The notes below the pieces were generated by a model. The model was not told the DNA's origin, did not search any database, and worked only from the letters and a program-made list of their open reading frames with translations. A DNA stretch of 38,661 nucleotides, taken from positions 1 through 38,661 of the IMG/VR virus record IMGVR_UViG_3300048881_000221. One strand, 5' to 3'. Made by a program: the position numbers and the translations under genes. Below, one piece after another: positions 6,468 to 26,308 of the stretch (the stretch's first letter is position 1; the number at the start of each line of letters is the position of its first letter). The stretch comes from a virus (Duplodnaviria > Caudoviricetes).

Positions 6468-7094
6468 TTATACCATCACCACTTTACCAGCGAATCTACA
6501 GTCAGGCGACTCTGGTACTCTCATTTCGACGTCGCCATTAGCTAATACTTTTAGCTCGTCTAATTCAACTTTTACGAAGTCAGACCCACTAACCTCGAAG
6601 ACGTCTACTTGTGGCGAAGTACCTCTAGTATGAGTAGCTTGGGTAATTGTTTGAGTATAGTACCCACCCGATGCTGTACCCCAAGAAGTAGTAGCGTCGA
6701 AAGTCGAAGTAAATCTAGCAGTCGCTAGGGTATCGGCCTCTTCTAAGAAGTTTACATACCATACACCCTCGTCAGTAGAGTTATCTACTAGAGTGAACTC
6801 GTAAGCTCTATCTGGTGTAACAGTTTTACGAAGTACTGGCGTAACCGCATCGTAAGTTTTTACATTTAAGTTTGAAGTCTTACCCTCAACTACGATGGCC
6901 CACCCATTAGGTAGAGTAGTCGCGTCTGGTAGAATTACGTCTTGTACTGCAGCTGCAGTAATTTGTTGCCAGTATTCTGAATGAATTTCTAGCTGTTCAG
7001 CCGCCGTAATTGTACTAGCTAAAAGCCCTTGGTTTACTCTTCTAGCCGCATTAATCGTACGACATACATTTAGATCGCCCTTGATTGTACCCAT
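6468..7094 (-). CDS. Putative head fibre/decoration protein
   Basis: VILPDATTLPNGW fibre-like motif; C-terminal domain paralogous to 7098-7379. Confidence 0.6.
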   Translation of the reverse strand: MGTIKGDLNVCRTINAARRVNQGLLASTITAAEQLEIHSEYWQQITAAAVQDVILPDATTLPNGWAIVVEGKTSNLNVKTYDAVTPVLRKTVTPDRAYEFTLVDNSTDEGVWYVNFLEEADTLATARFTSTFDATTSWGTASGGYYTQTITQATHTRGTSPQVDVFEVSGSDFVKVELDELKVLANGDVEMRVPESPDCRFAGKVVMV

Positions 7095-8063: not shown

Positions 8064-8975
8064 TTAGTACTTAACTTTGATTGATTTTTGCCACAGACCG
8101 TAACCGAAACCGACTCTATAGTCGATACCGTACTTGTAAGTCTTGTGCATAAAACCATGCTCGCTAGTAGCTTCTAAAGCACCAAACCTAGGAGCTTGTC
8201 TATTTTGCTGAATGAATGGCTTTAAGTTACCGCTCATTTCTACGATGTACCAGTTAGACCCAGTAAGTCTACCAGACGTCATATACTTCGAAGCACCTTT
8301 AAGAGTGTTAGTAGCGTTGTCAAGAAGCTCAGCTCCGAAAACTCTATCTAATACACCTTCAAGGTCAGGCGAAGCAACGATCATAAGGTCTAAAGACCCT
8401 TCGTTAAATGGCTCACCTTGATCGTCTACGAATTTTCTCATCTTACCACGAGCAAGCTCGAAGTCAGCTGAAAGCTCCGCAGCTGTAGGTACAGTACCAG
8501 CCTTAGTACCAGTATGTAGGTTAGACTGAGCAGCTGAGTCAGCTGTATACTTGTGAGACGCTGAGTAAAACGCTACACCGTCGAAAGCAAGTCCTACTTC
8601 ACCATTAGAAAGTAATTCAAAAAATTTCTTTCTTGGGTGAGTCTTAGCTCTACGAGCTAGGTCTTGAATACGTACTTTAATCGCGCCGTACTGGTCGTCT
8701 TCAATATCGTCTCTATCTACTTGTAGAGTCGACTCATAATGCACATTAGGAATAGAGTAATCGAAGTCAAGAATACCGCTAAGTTTTCTTGAGTCTTTCC
8801 ACTCTCTAAGCTGAGGTACACTACCTAGCCACCCATACTTTTCTGACCCAGACGTCGAAGCCGTCTGCATAATCATTGGCATTACGTCAGCTGGATTTTC
8901 GCCGTTATCAAACGACTTCATAAATTCAGTACGTAGTGCTTTTTCTAAAACAATACTATTTTTAATTTGTCCCAT
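8064..8975 (-). CDS. Major capsid protein (Mu gpT-like)
   Basis: EKYGWLGSVPQLREW, YESTLQVDRDDIEDDQYG, KPFIQQNR, YGIDYRVGFGYGLWQ. Confidence 0.95.
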   Translation of the reverse strand: MGQIKNSIVLEKALRTEFMKSFDNGENPADVMPMIMQTASTSGSEKYGWLGSVPQLREWKDSRKLSGILDFDYSIPNVHYESTLQVDRDDIEDDQYGAIKVRIQDLARRAKTHPRKKFFELLSNGEVGLAFDGVAFYSASHKYTADSAAQSNLHTGTKAGTVPTAAELSADFELARGKMRKFVDDQGEPFNEGSLDLMIVASPDLEGVLDRVFGAELLDNATNTLKGASKYMTSGRLTGSNWYIVEMSGNLKPFIQQNRQAPRFGALEATSEHGFMHKTYKYGIDYRVGFGYGLWQKSIKVKY

Positions 8976-16030: not shown

Positions 16031-18400
16031 TTAGTATTTTGAAGGGTCGAAGTCGTCAACTTCGGTTTTCTTGATAGTATAAAACTGACCTTTTTTACCA
16101 GTCTTACCCTTTAGGCCTAATTCGGTCATACGATTAAAAAATCTTTTAAGACCCATTGAGTACCTTTCGCGTTGCTGCTCAGTCATAAATTCTACGTAAG
16201 CCTTATACGCCTCTCTAGGTTTTACGAAGTCGTGCGGCTCACCTTCAGCTGGTACAAGCTCATTTAATTCTAGCCACTCTTCGACGCTGTCTTGCGCCCT
16301 AAATGACTCTTGAGCTTCGGTTAGGTCACTAATATACTCGTGAATATACGTAGTATTATTATTTTCATCTATTCCACGCCAGAGCTTGACATAATCAATC
16401 TCATTAATGTCGTCCCACTGACACCTTTTATCTACCCAGTATTCAAAATAACGACGCGAGCTTGTAGGGTCGTGGATAATATCAGCGACGTGACTATTAG
16501 AAGTACCGATAAACGACGCGAAGTTTTTACCTTGCACTCTCGTAGTTTTACCTAGTGGTCTATAGTTTAACCATTTCGAAGTTATCTTATTTTTTAGCGC
16601 TTCGACATTTACTTTTCTTGTCGCGGCCATCTCATCGAAAAATACAATAGCATTAGCTGTAAGTCTAAAGTCGTGCCTTTCGTCTGCTATAGAGTCGAGC
16701 ATCATAGTGTCGACTAATTCTTTAAACGGCTTAAAAAGTTTTATAATAGCTTGAGTCTTACCAGTGTTAGTGATACCAGCGAGTACGATCATCATTTCGC
16801 GCTCTACAGATAGGCCGCATACTTTACGCTTAACGAGCCAGCACCAGTGCTTTAATACATTAACTTCAAGCTCTGACGGCTCACGAGATAGAACCGCAGT
16901 TAAAAACTTTTCGACGAGGTCGTTACTACCTTCGTAGCTTAAATGATCTTGTAGACTCTGAAGTCTTTTAGCTCGCTCGTTGGATTCCCACTCGTTTAAA
17001 AATGCAGTAATTCTATTTTGCGAAACCATTTTATATTCTTTTCTACTTACTAAGTCTGAAGCGTTAAATATACGATCTTCGATTACGTTTCTAGGTATAG
17101 GGTTTTCTAGGTCATTATTTAGAAACCAGTTATTAGCTAGAGTAACTACGGCCATGTTTTCTACAAGCCAGTTTCTAATAAATTCTGTAGCTGGTTTAGC
17201 TGCTATCGTTGCCAGCTCTTGAAAAGCAGACTTCGGTGCATCTACTGGCACTGGTCTTTTATCTTTTCTTAGCTTGGCCCACAGATCACACTTAGCGCTA
17301 CAGTGCTTAGACTTGATAGGCTCTAAACACCCGTGGTTATAGAAACGATCGCCGTTATAAATATCATGTATCATATCGAAGCACTCGGCTTGGCGATGCT
17401 CAGGCATTACGCGCTCTATCCAAGGGGTCATAACATTAATACAATGCTCGATAGCTTTACCGCTTTTAAAAAGATCATTGATTAAAATTAGGCACGTTGT
17501 ATTTCTTTCGCCCTCGTCTATCTCAGCTTCGAAAAGTCTCTTGATACATACCTTACCGTCGAAAGCCTCAAGTCTTGTAGGCTCAAGAGCAGTACCAGCT
17601 TTAGACTTATCGTAAGCAGCTGTAGCTTTCGCTTGCTCTAATATATCTACGAGAATAGGGTTAGGCTCAACTTCGTAGTTTTTAATTTCGTACATGGTAT
17701 CGCGACGTACTTTACAATATTCTTTAATCGCGTTTATGTCTTTCGTATCGACGCCAACGTGACTAACAATAGTTTTATAGAGTCCAGTCTTAGCGTGTTT
17801 AGAATTAGGTACACGAAACTTACGACCGATATTATACACTGACGTATCGAGTGTAGGAAAATGCGGCTTCAGCTCATGCGATAAATTTCTAAGAGTCTTA
17901 GGTAGATTTTCGTCAGCTGGTAGGCCGAAGTATTCGAAAGGTACAGAGATATGAAAACCCTTAGACCCTGAGTACGCGACGTAAAAGTATTCGAAGCGAA
18001 AGTAATTTAAGAAAGCTTGTACGTCTCTTAGAGAATTTTCTGGACTGTCTTCGTCGTCGAAGTCGAAACCTACTAGCCCGAAAGCTGGACGACAAGCGCC
18101 CTCGGCGTTTTTGAATGTTAGACCTAGGTTAACTTCGCCCTCGTCTAGTTTGATATTATCAGACTGAGCTACTGTACGAATGACTTTGGTTTTAAACTTC
18201 GAGCCATCTTTCGCGGTTTTCTCAACGAGTTTACCAGTGTCGATAGCTACCTTCAGCCCTGACTCTGGTACGTCGAAATGATTATAGTAAGCTTCGCTAC
18301 CGTCGTGGTTTTTGATAGCTTCGACGAGGTCGTCAGAGTTTAAATGCCCGTCAGTACCCTTAGCGAATTTCGATGTAACTAGATAGTTAATATGTTTCAT
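16031..18400 (-). CDS. AEP primase-polymerase fused to PriCT-like domain and VirE/VapE P-loop helicase
   Basis: AEP motifs FDFDD, YSGSKGFHI, RKFRVPNS; GERN helical domain; Walker A GITNTGKT, Walker B FFDE, FIGTSN, SSRRY. Confidence 0.92.
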   Translation of the reverse strand: MKHINYLVTSKFAKGTDGHLNSDDLVEAIKNHDGSEAYYNHFDVPESGLKVAIDTGKLVEKTAKDGSKFKTKVIRTVAQSDNIKLDEGEVNLGLTFKNAEGACRPAFGLVGFDFDDEDSPENSLRDVQAFLNYFRFEYFYVAYSGSKGFHISVPFEYFGLPADENLPKTLRNLSHELKPHFPTLDTSVYNIGRKFRVPNSKHAKTGLYKTIVSHVGVDTKDINAIKEYCKVRRDTMYEIKNYEVEPNPILVDILEQAKATAAYDKSKAGTALEPTRLEAFDGKVCIKRLFEAEIDEGERNTTCLILINDLFKSGKAIEHCINVMTPWIERVMPEHRQAECFDMIHDIYNGDRFYNHGCLEPIKSKHCSAKCDLWAKLRKDKRPVPVDAPKSAFQELATIAAKPATEFIRNWLVENMAVVTLANNWFLNNDLENPIPRNVIEDRIFNASDLVSRKEYKMVSQNRITAFLNEWESNERAKRLQSLQDHLSYEGSNDLVEKFLTAVLSREPSELEVNVLKHWCWLVKRKVCGLSVEREMMIVLAGITNTGKTQAIIKLFKPFKELVDTMMLDSIADERHDFRLTANAIVFFDEMAATRKVNVEALKNKITSKWLNYRPLGKTTRVQGKNFASFIGTSNSHVADIIHDPTSSRRYFEYWVDKRCQWDDINEIDYVKLWRGIDENNNTTYIHEYISDLTEAQESFRAQDSVEEWLELNELVPAEGEPHDFVKPREAYKAYVEFMTEQQRERYSMGLKRFFNRMTELGLKGKTGKKGQFYTIKKTEVDDFDPSKY

Positions 18401-18434
18401 TGTACCCCTACAAGTTTAAATATATGAGGTGCAT

Positions 18435-18485
18435 AGGCTAAAAGTTATTTTATAGATTGACAAGTGAAAATTATTTTTCGATTAT
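18435..18485. promoter_or_regulatory. Back-to-back promoters sharing overlapping -35 boxes
   Basis: Minus strand: TTGTCA(18463-58)-17-TAGCCT(18440-35) toward primase. Plus strand: TTGACA(18457-62)-17-GATTAT(18480-85) toward the hairpin RNA. Confidence 0.6.
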
Positions 18486-18490
18486 AAGAC

Positions 18491-18575
18491 CTTATGGTTA
18501 TGAGCCATAGATCACCTAGCGCCCTCGTACGCCTGAGTAGTACCCCTACCCTAACGTCGAGGGCGTTCTAGGTTT
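18491..18575 (+). ncRNA. Candidate antisense small RNA with anti-RBS loop
   Basis: Hairpin 18492-18510, then stem ACCUAG-CGCCCUCG/CGAGGGCG-UU-CUAGGU enclosing GUAGUACCCCUAC, complementary to several phage RBSs. Confidence 0.55.
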
Positions 18576-18768
18576 ACTCTCCTAACTCTTCACAAGTAAG
18601 CCCAGCGAAAACGCTATTTAGTCTTTCAAGTGATAGAGTACCGTCGAAAGGGTCGAGTACTTTTTTATCTCTATGTATTAGCGCCCAAGCTAAGTAGATC
18701 GCGTCTACTATGGTGCGAGTGTCGTCTTCAGTCATCATACTTACGGCTGGCTTCATTACGTCTTTCAT
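18574..18768 (-). CDS. Hypothetical protein
   Basis: ATGA overlap with the upstream gene; GAGGT RBS. Confidence 0.65.
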   Translation of the reverse strand: MKDVMKPAVSMMTEDDTRTIVDAIYLAWALIHRDKKVLDPFDGTLSLERLNSVFAGLTCEELGE

Positions 18769-19238: not shown

Positions 19239-19675
19239 TTTAATACCCCTCTAATTTCGTTGGCGAAGTCTGGCATTTCTTCTTTCATATCTTCGCTGTA
19301 AATTAATTTTAACTCTCCATACGCGAGCTTTAGAAGACGCTTTAAGTTAGCTATCTCTTCTTTCTTGGTAGGCTTCTTAGCTGGTTTAATCGGTACGCGG
19401 TGGGTACATTCCCATACGAGTACAGTCTGCTTAGTAACCTTACAAGGGCGCTTGTCTTTCTCGACGACACTACCCATAGCTCGTAACTCTCCTAACCTCG
19501 TGGTTATGTTAGCTTGGTTAATTTTCTTTTTACCTACGAGATTTTTATAAAGCTCATTCGCGGTACAAGGCCCATAATTAAAGAGGGCTTCGTATACTAG
19601 TTTTTGCATATTACCTAGCTCGCCTGAGCTTATAACTTTCTCTAGTGCTTTCTTACTTGTATCTCTTACACTCAT
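19235..19675 (-). CDS. Winged-helix DNA-binding protein
   Basis: QKLVYEAL...GPCTANEL...ITTRLGELRAMGSV...RPCKVT.....VW. Confidence 0.75.
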   Translation of the reverse strand: MSVRDTSKKALEKVISSGELGNMQKLVYEALFNYGPCTANELYKNLVGKKKINQANITTRLGELRAMGSVVEKDKRPCKVTKQTVLVWECTHRVPIKPAKKPTKKEEIANLKRLLKLAYGELKLIYSEDMKEEMPDFANEIRGVLK

Positions 19676-20669: not shown

Positions 20670-20699
20670 GCAGTACCCCTACTGTTTAAGTTATAACTC

Positions 20700-20749: not shown

Positions 20750-20783
20750 TTGACGATAGAAAAAGTATAGGTTACTCATATAC
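20750..20783 (+). promoter_or_regulatory. Rightward promoter region
   Basis: TTGACG at 20750 with an imperfect -10; ATAGGTTANNCATATAC motif shared with 26085-26101. Confidence 0.5.
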
Positions 20784-20809
20784 TTCAATTACTTACAGGG
20801 GTGCTATAA

Positions 20810-21464: not shown

Positions 21465-21552
21465 AGATATACCTACATTCGAAGGTGTCTACTTAGCTAA
21501 TAAATGTGGTCAGAATATTGTATTAAAACTAATAAAACATGGAGTCACGTAA
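21451..21552 (+). pseudogene. NUMOD4-motif remnant (decayed HNH homing endonuclease N-terminus)
   Basis: MKLFKDIPTFEGVYLANKCGQ resembles the NUMOD4 pattern WKDIPGYEGLYQVSN.G; an adjacent frame continues YCIKTNK. Confidence 0.6.
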
Positions 21553-21553
21553 A

Positions 21554-22441
21554 ATGAAATGGTTATGGAGAAAGATCAAAAACTTCTTTAGAAAGAAGAA
21601 ACCTACACCACCAATCATAATTAATGACGAGGTCGAAAATGAAACAAGACCTAACGATAATGAAGACACTGATAAGCCTGACGACTTAGGTATCGACGAG
21701 ACTGTATACACTGAGGGCGCTAAAGAATTAGTATACCCTAAAGCTGTGTACTACGGTGAGAAAATGAGGACTAGAGGGCGTTATAAGAAAGGCTACCCAC
21801 AAGGTGCTATTATTCATTATACGGCTGGACGTAGTCGTAACAAGGTCGAGGGTGGTAGTAGACATAAAGACACTAATAAAGAAATGGGTAAAAAATCTAC
21901 TGACAGTGCTATCAGAAATAACTCTCTATGCTATTTCGTAAACGACCGCGACGGTAATATACACCAAGCTTTTAAGCTTAATCGTTGGGGTTATCATGCT
22001 GGTACATCTAAATGGCCTAAGCTGTGGGGTAGTGTAAGTGACGAGCTTGTAGGTATTGAAACTCAGGGCGCTGGTAAACTCTCCGAAGTTCACGAAGGTA
22101 TTTATAAAGCCTACTTCACTGATACTAATAAAGGTGACTTACCGTTTTATGAAGACGAGGTAAGACATATAACTACGACGAAAGATAATTTAACTAGAGG
22201 TACTTTTCATAAGTTTACTGAAGCTCAAGAGAAAGGACTCGTAGAGTTACTACTATGGCTTAAACGTAATAACCCCGAAGTTTTTAACTTCGATCTAGTA
22301 TTAGGTCACGACGAGGTAGCTGGTAAAGAAATGCTAGGTTATCAGAGAAAAGTAGACCCTAGTGGTAGTCTGTCAATGACTATGCCAGAGTTTAGGGAAT
22401 ATCTGAAGAAAGAATATAAAAACAGATATGGAGAGTCATAG
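21554..22441 (+). CDS. N-acetylmuramoyl-L-alanine amidase (Amidase_2), endolysin-like
   Basis: IIHYTAG, GYHAG, VGIE, LGHDEV...KVDP zinc-amidase motifs. GGAG at 21541 favours the start at 21554. Confidence 0.9.
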   Translation: MKWLWRKIKNFFRKKKPTPPIIINDEVENETRPNDNEDTDKPDDLGIDETVYTEGAKELVYPKAVYYGEKMRTRGRYKKGYPQGAIIHYTAGRSRNKVEGGSRHKDTNKEMGKKSTDSAIRNNSLCYFVNDRDGNIHQAFKLNRWGYHAGTSKWPKLWGSVSDELVGIETQGAGKLSEVHEGIYKAYFTDTNKGDLPFYEDEVRHITTTKDNLTRGTFHKFTEAQEKGLVELLLWLKRNNPEVFNFDLVLGHDEVAGKEMLGYQRKVDPSGSLSMTMPEFREYLKKEYKNRYGES

Positions 22442-22623: not shown

Positions 22624-22772
22624 TGGAAAATAAACAAGAGCCTATCGCTTGGGTATGTACAGACTGTGGGGCCGAGTCTACTTACAGAGTAGAGCATAAT
22701 GAGAAAGCCCCGCGAGGCTGGCGCGAAGACGATAAAGGTTATCATTGTAATAAATGTAGGGGTAAAAAATGA
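22623..22772 (+). CDS. Small zinc-ribbon protein (49 aa; not in ORF track)
   Basis: WVCTDCG...PRGW...HCNKC. Confidence 0.75.
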   Translation: MENKQEPIAWVCTDCGAESTYRVEHNEKAPRGWREDDKGYHCNKCRGKK

Positions 22773-22915
22773 GCTATAACAATTGTATAGAGAAACTTGA
22801 AGAGGCTAAAAAAGAATTAATAAATGAAAAACAATTCGTAAAGGCTGAAATTAAATTTTTGCTGGTGCAGATTGATTTAGCGATTGAAGCCATAACTAAC
22901 CAATGGGGTAAATAA
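22769..22915 (+). CDS. Small hypothetical protein (48 aa; not in ORF track)
   Basis: MSYNNCIEKLEEAKKELINEK...; AGGGGT RBS and overlaps at both ends. Confidence 0.7.
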   Translation: MSYNNCIEKLEEAKKELINEKQFVKAEIKFLLVQIDLAIEAITNQWGK

Positions 22916-24074: not shown

Positions 24075-24320
24075 ATGAAAAAGCAGACACCCCAAGAGCG
24101 TATAGCTATCAAGAAGATTTTAAAAGACGAGTACGGCGAAGACCACCCGACTTTTAAGAAGATAATTATTATCGACGAGTGTACTAGGTTTACTGAGCTT
24201 GACAGCGGTAAAGTCTTTACTTGCATCGAAGTTCAGTTAAAGGGGTGTCTAATCGAAAACGGTATAAGACGTAGATACGTTAGCTATGCTGACCTAGAAA
24301 ACTACGAAGTGAGTAATTAA
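24075..24320 (+). CDS. Hypothetical protein
   Basis: Coupled ORF in the operon. Confidence 0.7.
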   Translation: MKKQTPQERIAIKKILKDEYGEDHPTFKKIIIIDECTRFTELDSGKVFTCIEVQLKGCLIENGIRRRYVSYADLENYEVSN

Positions 24321-24673
24321 TGCAAGAGTTTAAAGTAGGCGAAACTGTAGTCTATACAATGTCTGGCTATTATTATCAAGGTATCACACTATCTAAAATA
24401 GTTAGAGAGACTAAAAAGCAGTACATACTTGAAAACGGACGCCGATACTGGAAAGAAACATTAAGCGAAGTAGGCGAGCGCTATAGTAGAATAGGTAAGT
24501 TTACCGATGAGCTTAAAGCTAAATATAAATTACAGCGAAAGCTAAGCGAGGTATCTGTTAGACTAAGTAAACTAAACGAGCGTAGAAACCATATAAAAGT
24601 AAAAGACTTAAGTAAACTAGGTAATGCTATAAACCTACTAGATCAGCTTGAAAAAGTTTTAGAGTTAAAATGA
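24320..24673 (+). CDS. Hypothetical protein (SH3-like N-terminus)
   Basis: FKVGETV...KIVRETKKQYILENGRRY. Confidence 0.7.
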   Translation: MQEFKVGETVVYTMSGYYYQGITLSKIVRETKKQYILENGRRYWKETLSEVGERYSRIGKFTDELKAKYKLQRKLSEVSVRLSKLNERRNHIKVKDLSKLGNAINLLDQLEKVLELK

Positions 24674-26088
24674 CTAATCTTAATCACGAAAATCTATACG
24701 ATTTTCAAAAAGAAATTTATAACCGTTTTAAAGACGATAATAACGCCGCCCTCTTAATGGACATGGGTACAGGTAAGACGCCTACTACTATCTCACTTAT
24801 CAGATACAAGTACGGTATGGCTGGCGGGGTATTACCCACCGTAGTTTTTTGCCCTGTTATTACGTTAGAAAACTGGAAAAACGAGCTAACTACGTGGACG
24901 AAGTTAAAGCCTGAGTATATCGGTATCGTTAAAGGTACACCGAAGAAACGCTTAGAGACTATCGAAAACCCTCAGCATAAAATTATCATTGTAAACTACG
25001 AGGCTTTAAGGTCTGAAAAAGTAGTCGAAGCTCTGAAGAAAAGACGCTTTCAGATAGCTGTATGTGACGAGTCTCAGCGTATCAAGTCTTATAAGTCTAT
25101 TTCTTGTCGTAAAGTCTTACAGGTTACTAAGACCGCTACAACTTTCAAGGCGATACTGTCAGGTACACCGATAACTAATATGGTGTCTGATATATGGAGC
25201 CAGTTTCTTTTCTTAGACGGTGGTGCTACTTTCGGTAATCGTATGTCTGTTTTCAAGGCTCGCTATATGGAGCAGTACATACCGCATGGTGAGACTTACC
25301 CTAAGTGGCGACTAAACCCGCATAAGTCTGAAGAGTTTACAGGTATGTTATCTACAAGAGCTGCACGTATTACTACTGAAGAGGCCGTAGATTTACCAGA
25401 AATGAGTATTAACCACGTTGACGTTGAACTTTCTAAAGAACAGAAAAAGCACTACGACGAGGTCGTGAAAGAATTAATCACATGGCTTGACGATCAAGAA
25501 GACAACCCACTTATAGTTAAAAATGCTCTGACTAAGATGCTTAGACTTAATGAAATATCGTCGGGGTTTATGAAGCTTCACGACGGTACGGTACATAGAT
25601 TTAAGACTAATCCTAGACTAGACGCCTGTATGGAGCTAGTCGAAATGGCCAGACCACATAAGATAATTATTTTCTGTATATTTAAAGAGAACTATAAAGA
25701 CCTTAGACGTGAGCTAGAAAAGAGAAATATCAAGTATGTAGAAATTACAGGCGAGGTATCGACTGAAGAAAAGCTCGCCGCGGCCGCTGAATTTAATAGT
25801 CCAGACGGTGAAGCTGAGGTATGTATCGCCAACACTAGAGCAGCGGGGTTAGGTGTAAACCTCGTCGGTGCGAGATATAAATTTTACTATACTCGTAACT
25901 TTAGCCTCGACGACTACTTGCAGTCTCAAAAACGTAATAATAGAGCGGGCGCTATCAAGTTTCATAAGAAGCTTTTCGACTATCATTTAATAGCACCGAA
26001 AACTATCGACGAAAGAATATATAAAAGAATTATCCAAAAAAAGAAATTTAGTGAAAAGTTACTTGACATTAAGTCAATGCTTACATAG
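24670..26088 (+). CDS. SNF2-family superfamily 2 helicase
   Basis: DMGTGKT, CDESQRIK, LSGTP, GLGVNL, QSQKRNNRAG. Confidence 0.93.
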   Translation: MTNLNHENLYDFQKEIYNRFKDDNNAALLMDMGTGKTPTTISLIRYKYGMAGGVLPTVVFCPVITLENWKNELTTWTKLKPEYIGIVKGTPKKRLETIENPQHKIIIVNYEALRSEKVVEALKKRRFQIAVCDESQRIKSYKSISCRKVLQVTKTATTFKAILSGTPITNMVSDIWSQFLFLDGGATFGNRMSVFKARYMEQYIPHGETYPKWRLNPHKSEEFTGMLSTRAARITTEEAVDLPEMSINHVDVELSKEQKKHYDEVVKELITWLDDQEDNPLIVKNALTKMLRLNEISSGFMKLHDGTVHRFKTNPRLDACMELVEMARPHKIIIFCIFKENYKDLRRELEKRNIKYVEITGEVSTEEKLAAAAEFNSPDGEAEVCIANTRAAGLGVNLVGARYKFYYTRNFSLDDYLQSQKRNNRAGAIKFHKKLFDYHLIAPKTIDERIYKRIIQKKKFSEKLLDIKSMLT

Positions 26089-26091
26089 GTT
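26063..26091 (+). promoter_or_regulatory. Internal promoter for the replication sub-operon
   Basis: TTGACA-17-TAGGTT; the -35 box is part of the inverted repeat TTGAC-ATTAA-GTCAA. Confidence 0.7.
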
Positions 26092-26119
26092 AGGCATATA
26101 CAAAACATAGGGGTACTAT

Positions 26120-26308
26120 ATGAGTAATTTCGAAGTGAATATACGTGAGAACACTTACGACGTAGCGCTTAAAGAAGTCGGAGTAACTTACAACGGTTTA
26201 ACACTAAGTAAGAAATTTAGAACTTACTTTCTTATTAACTGGCGTATAGAAAGATTCGTTAAGAAAGCTAAGAGAACTTTAAAGAATATCAGTGGGGGTA
26301 CTAAATGA
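26120..26308 (+). CDS. Hypothetical protein
   Basis: AGGGGT RBS; first gene after the 26063 promoter. Confidence 0.7.
   Translation: MSNFEVNIRENTYDVALKEVGVTYNGLTLSKKFRTYFLINWRIERFVKKAKRTLKNISGGTK

Follow-up and report, generated by a model that had tools for sequence, protein, structure and literature searches.

The DNA upstream of the primase gene of an uncultured marine phage raises the question of whether a short non-coding element located there encodes an antisense RNA directed against the RBSs of the phage's own early genes, as an earlier note had proposed from the letters alone. The window analyzed here is the entire 38,661-nt sequence of IMGVR_UViG_3300048881_000221, a complete, circular genome (127-bp terminal overlap, 39% GC) whose sequence occurs in hydrothermal-vent metagenomes. 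For the three proteins tried, no close match was found in cultured phages (nearest below 36% identity). Head and tail genes are carried on the minus strand, and the early region (about 16.0-30.6 kb) comprises a primase-helicase gene, small genes in two divergent blocks, and genes for an exonuclease, an SF2 helicase and DNA polymerase A. An amidase gene (21539-22441, plus strand) also lies inside the early region, apart from the late genes, and a lysin-like or lipoprotein-like gene at an early position was likewise seen in the relatives G001, G002, and L082.

A predicted small RNA head-to-head with the primase gene

The primase-helicase gene (16031-18400, minus strand; AEP primase and VapE-like domain according to profile hits) stands head-to-head with the putative RNA gene. 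A promoter scan placed a predicted sigma-70-type promoter (TTGACA-17-GATTAT) at 18457-18485 on the plus strand, back to back with a predicted primase promoter (TTGTCA-17-TAGCCT, 18435-18463, minus strand) and with overlapping -35 elements, which agrees with the layout described in the earlier note. The same arrangement is visible in L082, and equivalents of the type TTGACA-17/18-hexamer are found in L001, L002, L082, L008, and L085. The site is one of four 10/12 sites among the 39 promoter-like sites of the 15-30 kb region; since shuffled sequence yields 34.5 such sites, the match by itself is not significant.

The predicted RNA of about 90 nt (18491-18580, plus strand), both ends of which are predictions as well, has homologues in L001, L002, and L082. 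It consists of a 5′ hairpin (18492-18510), for which relatives have one of different sequence, a seed-bearing hairpin (18514-18573), whose lower stem is also the terminator stem in relatives, and a weak U-tail (UUUACU, 18574-18580); in nine of nine clear relatives the U-tracts are stronger. The stretch 18491-18582 (plus strand) folds as two hairpins at -36.1 kcal/mol (z -4.8), a value equaled by none of 200 shuffles. Two short frames in the element, one of 8 codons on the minus strand and one of 25 codons on the plus strand, are absent from L082; a small-peptide reading of the element was therefore rejected, and its description as a non-coding two-hairpin structure holds. The seed GUAGUACCCCUAC is indeed found in the large stem (18537-18549, plus strand), as a 4-bp stem with a UACCC loop, but its presentation is partial: only this 5-nt loop and nearby internal loops are unpaired, while the remaining seed bases are held in the 4-bp stem at a predicted opening cost of about 5 kcal/mol. 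Searches against Rfam returned no matching family, the C4/CI type included: nothing in the window reached E <= 1, and six loci of relatives yielded only a tRNA.

The linker between the two hairpins (18511-18518, plus strand) reads GAUCACCU, which we take to resemble the 16S 3′ end, and its L082 counterpart reads GAUUACCU; judged by its sequence, the linker could be a second, weaker anti-SD segment, with a 7-bp match at gene 19675. A further hairpin with a U6 tail (18636-18667, plus strand), located inside the antisense of ORF 18574-18768, could terminate a read-through form of the RNA of about 175 nt. Just upstream of the RNA gene of L001 (9480-9830), tandem repeats were observed that represent short near-identical ORFs with WEA/REA repeats. 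Comparison with four DNA read runs confirmed the sequence; the element stretch reassembles unchanged in the likely source run, and the contigs of two other runs contain no listed differences.

RBS tags of early genes and the specificity of pairing

Seven RBSs carry a segment complementary to the seed, hereafter called tag, each of them where the earlier note had located it, with contiguous seed-tag duplexes of 13, 12, 12, 11, 10, 10, and 9 bp. The 13-bp duplex belongs to the first leftward early gene, 20669 (20670-20682, minus strand; predicted net energy -11.5 kcal/mol). The two 12-bp duplexes, both at -12.1 kcal/mol, are located on the plus strand in front of gene 26120 behind the promoter at 26063-26091 (26108-26119) and of gene 26305 (26292-26303), whose product gives weak Gp157/Gam-like matches. 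The first rightward early gene, 20810, follows with 11 bp (20797-20807, plus strand; -9.5 kcal/mol), the primase-helicase gene (18402-18411, minus strand; -6.0 kcal/mol) and the HD hydrolase gene (19241-19250, minus strand; -5.0 kcal/mol) with 10 bp each, and gene 22769 with 9 bp (22756-22764, plus strand; -6.7 kcal/mol). The net-energy pairing scan also gave a weak 6-bp match at the exonuclease start (22905-22910, plus strand), a doubtful target.

Four of the tags belong to first genes of putative units (18400, 20669, 20810, and 26120) and the remaining three are operon-internal. The claim of a "master" regulator acting on "every" operon is an overstatement, as 7/29 early-region genes are tagged at their starts, the starts of the DNA polymerase, the helicase and gene 26956 are untagged, and early genes show no enrichment as a class (9/29 vs 4/30 at <= -14 kcal/mol; Mann-Whitney p = 0.27). 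Late genes are mostly without a tag and would escape, as the earlier note expected of most structural genes; in G001 a gene of the late/lysis block has a 13-bp seed match.

Several comparisons addressed the specificity of the match. Allowing up to two mismatches, the seed 12-mer has 17 matches where 4.5 are expected, and 0/100 shuffles reached as many. Among 70,038 13-nt segments outside start regions the seed scored highest, and only three segments, all overlapping it, pair with seven starts (next best six and five); pairing of at least 9 bp is found at 7/66 start regions. When the flanks of the seed were shuffled and its CCCC core was kept, one of 1000 variants paired as well as the real seed, so that the match is not merely anti-SD and, as the earlier note had argued, goes beyond generic SD pairing; with a generic anti-SD, early and late genes do not differ (p = 0.59). 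With the opening of both RNAs included, 8/62 starts reach a net pairing energy of <= -5 kcal/mol, all of them early genes, and the ten best of the 62 starts are all early, too. Ranked by raw duplex energy, the element is second of 2601 windows. Equilibrium co-folding of whole RNAs, a method that cannot model loop-loop pairing, gave only -0.1 to -5.5 kcal/mol, with no separation of targets from controls.

Every deviation within the duplexes had been described as a G-U wobble. This is the case for the isolated inner deviations (6/6 wobble-compatible, p about 0.01) but not for all deviations, where 22 wobble-type changes face 18 mirror transitions (p = 0.16). The original statement is also partly circular, because the duplexes were trimmed where pairing ends, and four A-to-G cases among the six inner deviations strengthen the SD as well. 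The deviation pattern thus offers weak support for pairing between RNAs.

Both in the window (18380-18430, minus strand) and in L082 (1340-1384), folding predicts that the SD of the primase is masked by a CCUC-AUAU segment lying 5′ of it. The primase start codon is TTG in G001, G002, and L082 and probably ATC in L085. The masked SD together with these weak start codons suggests tight translational control of the primase.

Conservation and joint change in relatives

The comparison set consisted of 24 primase-bearing records placed on a tree. An element head-to-head with the primase unit is clear in ten of them, namely the window, G001, G002, and L082, then G005 and L085, and finally G026, G027 (a near copy of G026), G028, and G031. 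It is weak in three (G004, L084, and G007) and was not found in eleven, several of which are fragments. Among the latter, as judged with imperfect detectors, are G003 and G017, which adjoin the window clade. The terminator-based detector overlooked even the window's own element with its weak tail, so that its blanks in relatives carry little weight. The clear cases have in common a promoter-like site on the antisense strand, a weak one in the G026 group, as well as two or three hairpins and a stem with a U-tail, whose end lies some 150-185 nt ahead of the primase unit's first gene. In four genomes with primase N-termini 56-75% identical to that of the window, the seed is the sole well-conserved block of the RNA.

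Wider searches added little. The covariance model R1, built from four sequences with a poorly aligned lower stem, recovered only its own four members in 78 sources. A DNA pattern scan of viral contigs yielded 33 stretches, of which L190 (identical to L002) alone has the anatomy of the element; the other 32 were dismissed as chance by folding and tag counts. Scans based on the capsid, the terminase, the helicase and the 26305 product revealed no additional element-bearing genome among the loci covered, which did not include 80 helicase loci of at most 37% identity.

Across three primase clades the loop seed changes together with the RBS tag of each genome, orthologous genes included. The loop is conserved and tracks the tags, as the earlier note had required of its proposal. 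The seeds are GUACCCCUA in the window clade, UUUCUUCCCUGAA in G005, UUCCCCUUGAAG in L085, and AUUAGUCCUC in the G026 group. The window seed matches 7/66 starts of its own genome and three to four starts in G001 and G002; elsewhere it matches none (G005 0/75, L085 0/18, G026 0/65, G027 0/50, G028 0/46, and G031 0/70). Conversely, the AUUAGUCCUC seeds match 8/65 starts in G026 (one of these via the flank, not the tag), 4/50 in G027, 7/46 in G028, and 12/70 in G031, and 0/66 in the window. Of two clades, one has GUAGGGGUAC-type tags at the orthologues of gene 26305 and the other has GAGGACU-type tags there. The primase unit bears the tag of its own genome in 9/10 genomes, the primase start of G027 being outside the start list. 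In G001, the closing pair is C-G and not G-C, and two G001 tags read CUAGGGG. Because loop and tag differ jointly between relatives, one RNA likely shuts the tagged early genes off together. The agreement is less sharp in some genomes: the G005 and L085 seeds are less specific, with up to five and four starts matched in other genomes, respectively, and the L085 seed matches foreign genomes as often as its own. A lenient 9-bp count does not put the element first in G001, in G002 (4 vs 5), or in G005 (background up to 12). In G031, an array of small genes was noted (35543-38681), most of which have a repeated hairpin and a GAGGACUAA tag in front.

These data bear on the possibility that the element is a terminator with a chance or duplicated copy of the phage's favorite RBS and has no regulatory role. 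Such a reading would agree with the promoter-like site, which alone is not above chance, and with the element missing from 11/24 relatives, but it would leave the seed as the only well-conserved block of the RNA, and the recurrence of the seed-tag match with different sequences in three clades, to coincidence; we regard it as the most remote of the explanations discussed here.

A different reading takes the tag as an asymmetric DNA operator of a phage DNA-binding protein and the copy at 18537-18549 as one more operator, the model being the stoperators of cluster A mycobacteriophages. Joint change of seed and tag within a genome is also expected of a protein and its sites. The motif contains the dyad GTAG-N5-CTAC, Arc/CopG- and NikA-like proteins are encoded by the window phage (27864 and 921), and the copy is oriented along leftward transcription in the window, G001, and G002. 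However, the tags hold SD spacing relative to the start codons even of operon-internal genes, the lone copy is centered in the loop of covarying stems that are followed by a U-tract on the other strand, and the copy lies between divergent genes in 7/10 genomes, which makes an operator quite improbable. A separate sequence, (C/T)ATAGG(T/C)T, is located at the -10 region of three early promoters of the window (18432-18440, 20766-20773, and 26084-26091), in G001 (8217-8232, a clear inverted repeat) and in G002 (6605-6622). By analogy with ESAS beside SAS, it may be the operator of a ribbon-helix-helix protein; as a bare pattern it is not significant, an ATAGG-type search being too unspecific to score.

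As to the strand on which the element acts, double-sided changes occur at 10/26 stem pairs in the G026 group. The lower stems of the four window-type RNAs differ in sequence and keep their pairing, although an automatic alignment of these four recovered only seven pairs, two of them with double changes. In relatives the U-tracts follow the stems on the antisense strand. Since the neighboring gene points away from the element in seven of the ten genomes (L082, G005, L085, G026, G027, G028, and G031), there is no obvious sense mRNA over the copy there. The window itself is the least clear case among the genomes, as its tail is weak and the more stable fold of the element is that of the minus strand (-41.9 kcal/mol, against -36.1 kcal/mol for the plus strand). 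This minus-strand fold, with the motif in its loop, and the end of the leftward operon at 18574, directly adjoining the element, would fit a model in which the tag is the site of a phage RNA-binding translational regulator and the element, acting in sense (minus strand), either is a decoy or terminates the leftward operon as a structure in cis; for the SAS tags discussed below, Pope et al. kept RNA or protein binding open (PMC3203893). The promoter and U-tail found on the antisense strand in relatives, the poor sense fold of L008 (z -1.1 vs -4.1) and the G-U pairs in the terminators of L018 and L020, which favor the antisense strand, stand against this model, and we rate it slightly lower still than the operator.

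The features of a trans-acting sRNA are thus present as predictions, namely a non-coding RNA with its own promoter and intrinsic terminator (weak in the G026-group promoter and the window tail, respectively), and in the sequences as a conserved exposed seed complementary to the target RBSs. Taken together, the element is real and conserved, and it most likely represents an antisense RNA that addresses several targets through the RBS tag of the phage itself.

Proposed mechanism and comparison with known systems

We assign a probability of roughly 60% to the reading in which a stand-alone trans-acting antisense sRNA blocks translation of the tagged early genes and thereby causes a delayed early shut-off. 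The loop of the RNA at 18491-18580 (plus strand) would pair in trans with the tag over the SD of the primase and six other early genes. Loop-loop nucleation is predicted from the self-complementarity of the tag (GUAG...CUAC) and from the small hairpins that several of the tagged RBSs are predicted to form; after an opening of about 5 kcal/mol, nucleation would be followed by a 9-13-bp duplex across the SD, which would occlude 30S binding. Host RNA polymerase would transcribe the RNA from the start of infection, and the RNA, if stable, would climb in level with time and genome copy number until it terminates the burst of early and replication-initiation proteins. The outcome would be a delayed negative feedback, or early shut-off, via RNA instead of a protein repressor, from which the mostly tagless late genes would escape. 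No Hfq-like gene was recognized in the window genome. At 24320-24673 (plus strand), a weak match to a ProQ C-terminal-like domain (phage; E 0.0065, below the cutoff) provides a possible lead to an RNA chaperone.

Alternatively, in a phage that persists in a carrier or plasmid-like state, the same RNA and pairing might confer immunity or control copy number; a resident genome would then silence the primase and early genes and block superinfecting phages of the same tag, and the seed classes would represent immunity groups. The RNA gene is head-to-head with the replication initiator, in G005, L085, and the G026-G031 group the element lies between divergent early units, a frequent location of repressor genes, the seeds diversify between clades, and the weak primase start codons of several relatives would suit such control. 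Precedents are the P4 CI RNA, which silences replication genes in the lysogen (PMC4825925), and antisense copy control of plasmids (PMC5415839). However, integrase, CI and partition proteins were recognized neither among 61 window ORFs compared with PHROGs (30 of them also with Pfam) nor among 95 selected proteins of five relatives, where divergent genes could escape such searches, and no antirepressor hit was obtained among the window ORFs. The earlier note had likewise described a phage lacking CI and integrase; because these and partition genes were not found, its suggestion of RNA-based immunity gained no positive support. With the same reservation about divergent genes, the window phage does not match a temperate-phage immunity system as defined by an integrase or partition module and a demonstrated lysogen. 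No close relative of the window phage was found in bacterial genomes, and the phage encodes its own DNA polymerase and helicase. Immunity or copy control is therefore considered unlikely, and delayed shut-off is favored because no lysogeny module was found and because of the analogy to the phage Adephagia.

This analogy concerns SAS, a 13-bp asymmetric tag at the starts of non-structural genes in cluster K mycobacteriophages and cluster EF Microbacterium phages (PMC3203893, PMC7302621, PMC11373665). Like SAS, the window tag is an asymmetric RBS motif on non-structural genes, is conserved beyond 16S pairing, and has a single reversed copy off any start. It differs in sequence from the cluster K/EF consensus and occurs in an unrelated phage group, which makes it an analogue and not a homologue, and it is less numerous (7 tags vs 13-19 in cluster K). 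The accessible portions of the three papers make no connection between the reversed copy and an antisense RNA, and the role of SAS was still termed unknown in 2024 (PMC11373665). In the 34.6 kb of Adephagia that were examined, we found 16 sense SAS copies and one reversed copy. The latter lies between genes 92 and 93, within the 10-nt loop of a hairpin predicted with z -3.7. The hairpin is located at L427:33662-33713 (plus strand), corresponding to about 58,661-58,712 of the Adephagia record, on the late-transcript strand, and late transcription begins between these same genes according to RNA-seq (PMC11373665). On the strength of this modeled fold, it is a candidate anti-SAS RNA in a cultured phage. 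Unlike the window element, the hairpin may belong to the late leader instead of forming a separate gene, and Adephagia has a repressor and an integrase. The accessible portions of PMC4351075 and PMC9262239 held nothing further for this comparison.

Among phage antisense RNAs, the P4 CI RNA is similar in being small, using short complementary segments and silencing replication functions; it is processed from the leader under its control and acts by transcription termination at seqA/seqC (PMC4825925). The window RNA is not processed from a leader next to icd/ant or kil, its gene being divergent from the primase unit without overlap. The c4 RNA of P1 and P7 is a small antisense RNA controlling one antirepressor operon. 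Compared with CI and c4, the window RNA would be made from a promoter and end at a terminator of its own, both of them predicted; it lies apart from its targets and matches seven RBSs at distances of up to 8 kb. P22 sar, lambda OOP and aQ are phage antisense RNAs that tune development, with sar blocking initiation of ant translation (PMC12197685); as described there, each has one target, with whose region it is paired, and no genome-wide tag. The overlap and long perfect complementarity of cis-antisense RNAs are absent from the window, where matches of 9-13 bp occur at distant loci.

The antisense RNAs of plasmid copy control are transcribed across the rep leader, to which they are fully complementary. 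Those of IncFII, IncI/B and pT181 (PMC5415839) are like the window RNA in being small stem-loop RNAs transcribed opposite a replication-initiator unit whose synthesis they limit, whereas the window RNA is divergent, non-overlapping and multi-target. As in multi-target bacterial sRNAs, one short seed can occlude many RBSs (PMC12197685); in contrast to those, the window targets appear to have been equipped with one common tag, which is exchanged along with the seed.

Small RNAs that occlude an RBS are a known mechanism; for a regulon built on a seed-tag code specific to each clade, no published description was found. As far as the sources consulted describe them, phage antisense RNAs act on one phage gene or leader or on host genes (PMC12197685, PMC4825925). 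No paper on a phage sRNA against a shared RBS tag was found in a search that covered few subscription journals. The statement of the earlier note that no such system has been described thus stands for the mechanism, but the pattern of tags plus one reversed copy was published as SAS in 2011 (PMC3203893). We see even odds for the broader idea of an RNA repressor regulon, in which the sRNA and the RBS tags would correspond to a repressor and its operators at the ribosome, a code rewritten by each clade could define immunity or compatibility groups without CI, and the same logic would explain SAS. If the antisense reading is true, one RNA setting the timing of a whole group of early genes of the same phage via purpose-built RBS tags would represent a new layer of phage gene control. 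It would also offer a direct, testable explanation of SAS motifs, with Adephagia as the cultured system, and seed-tag pairs from different clades would be natural orthogonal translational switches.
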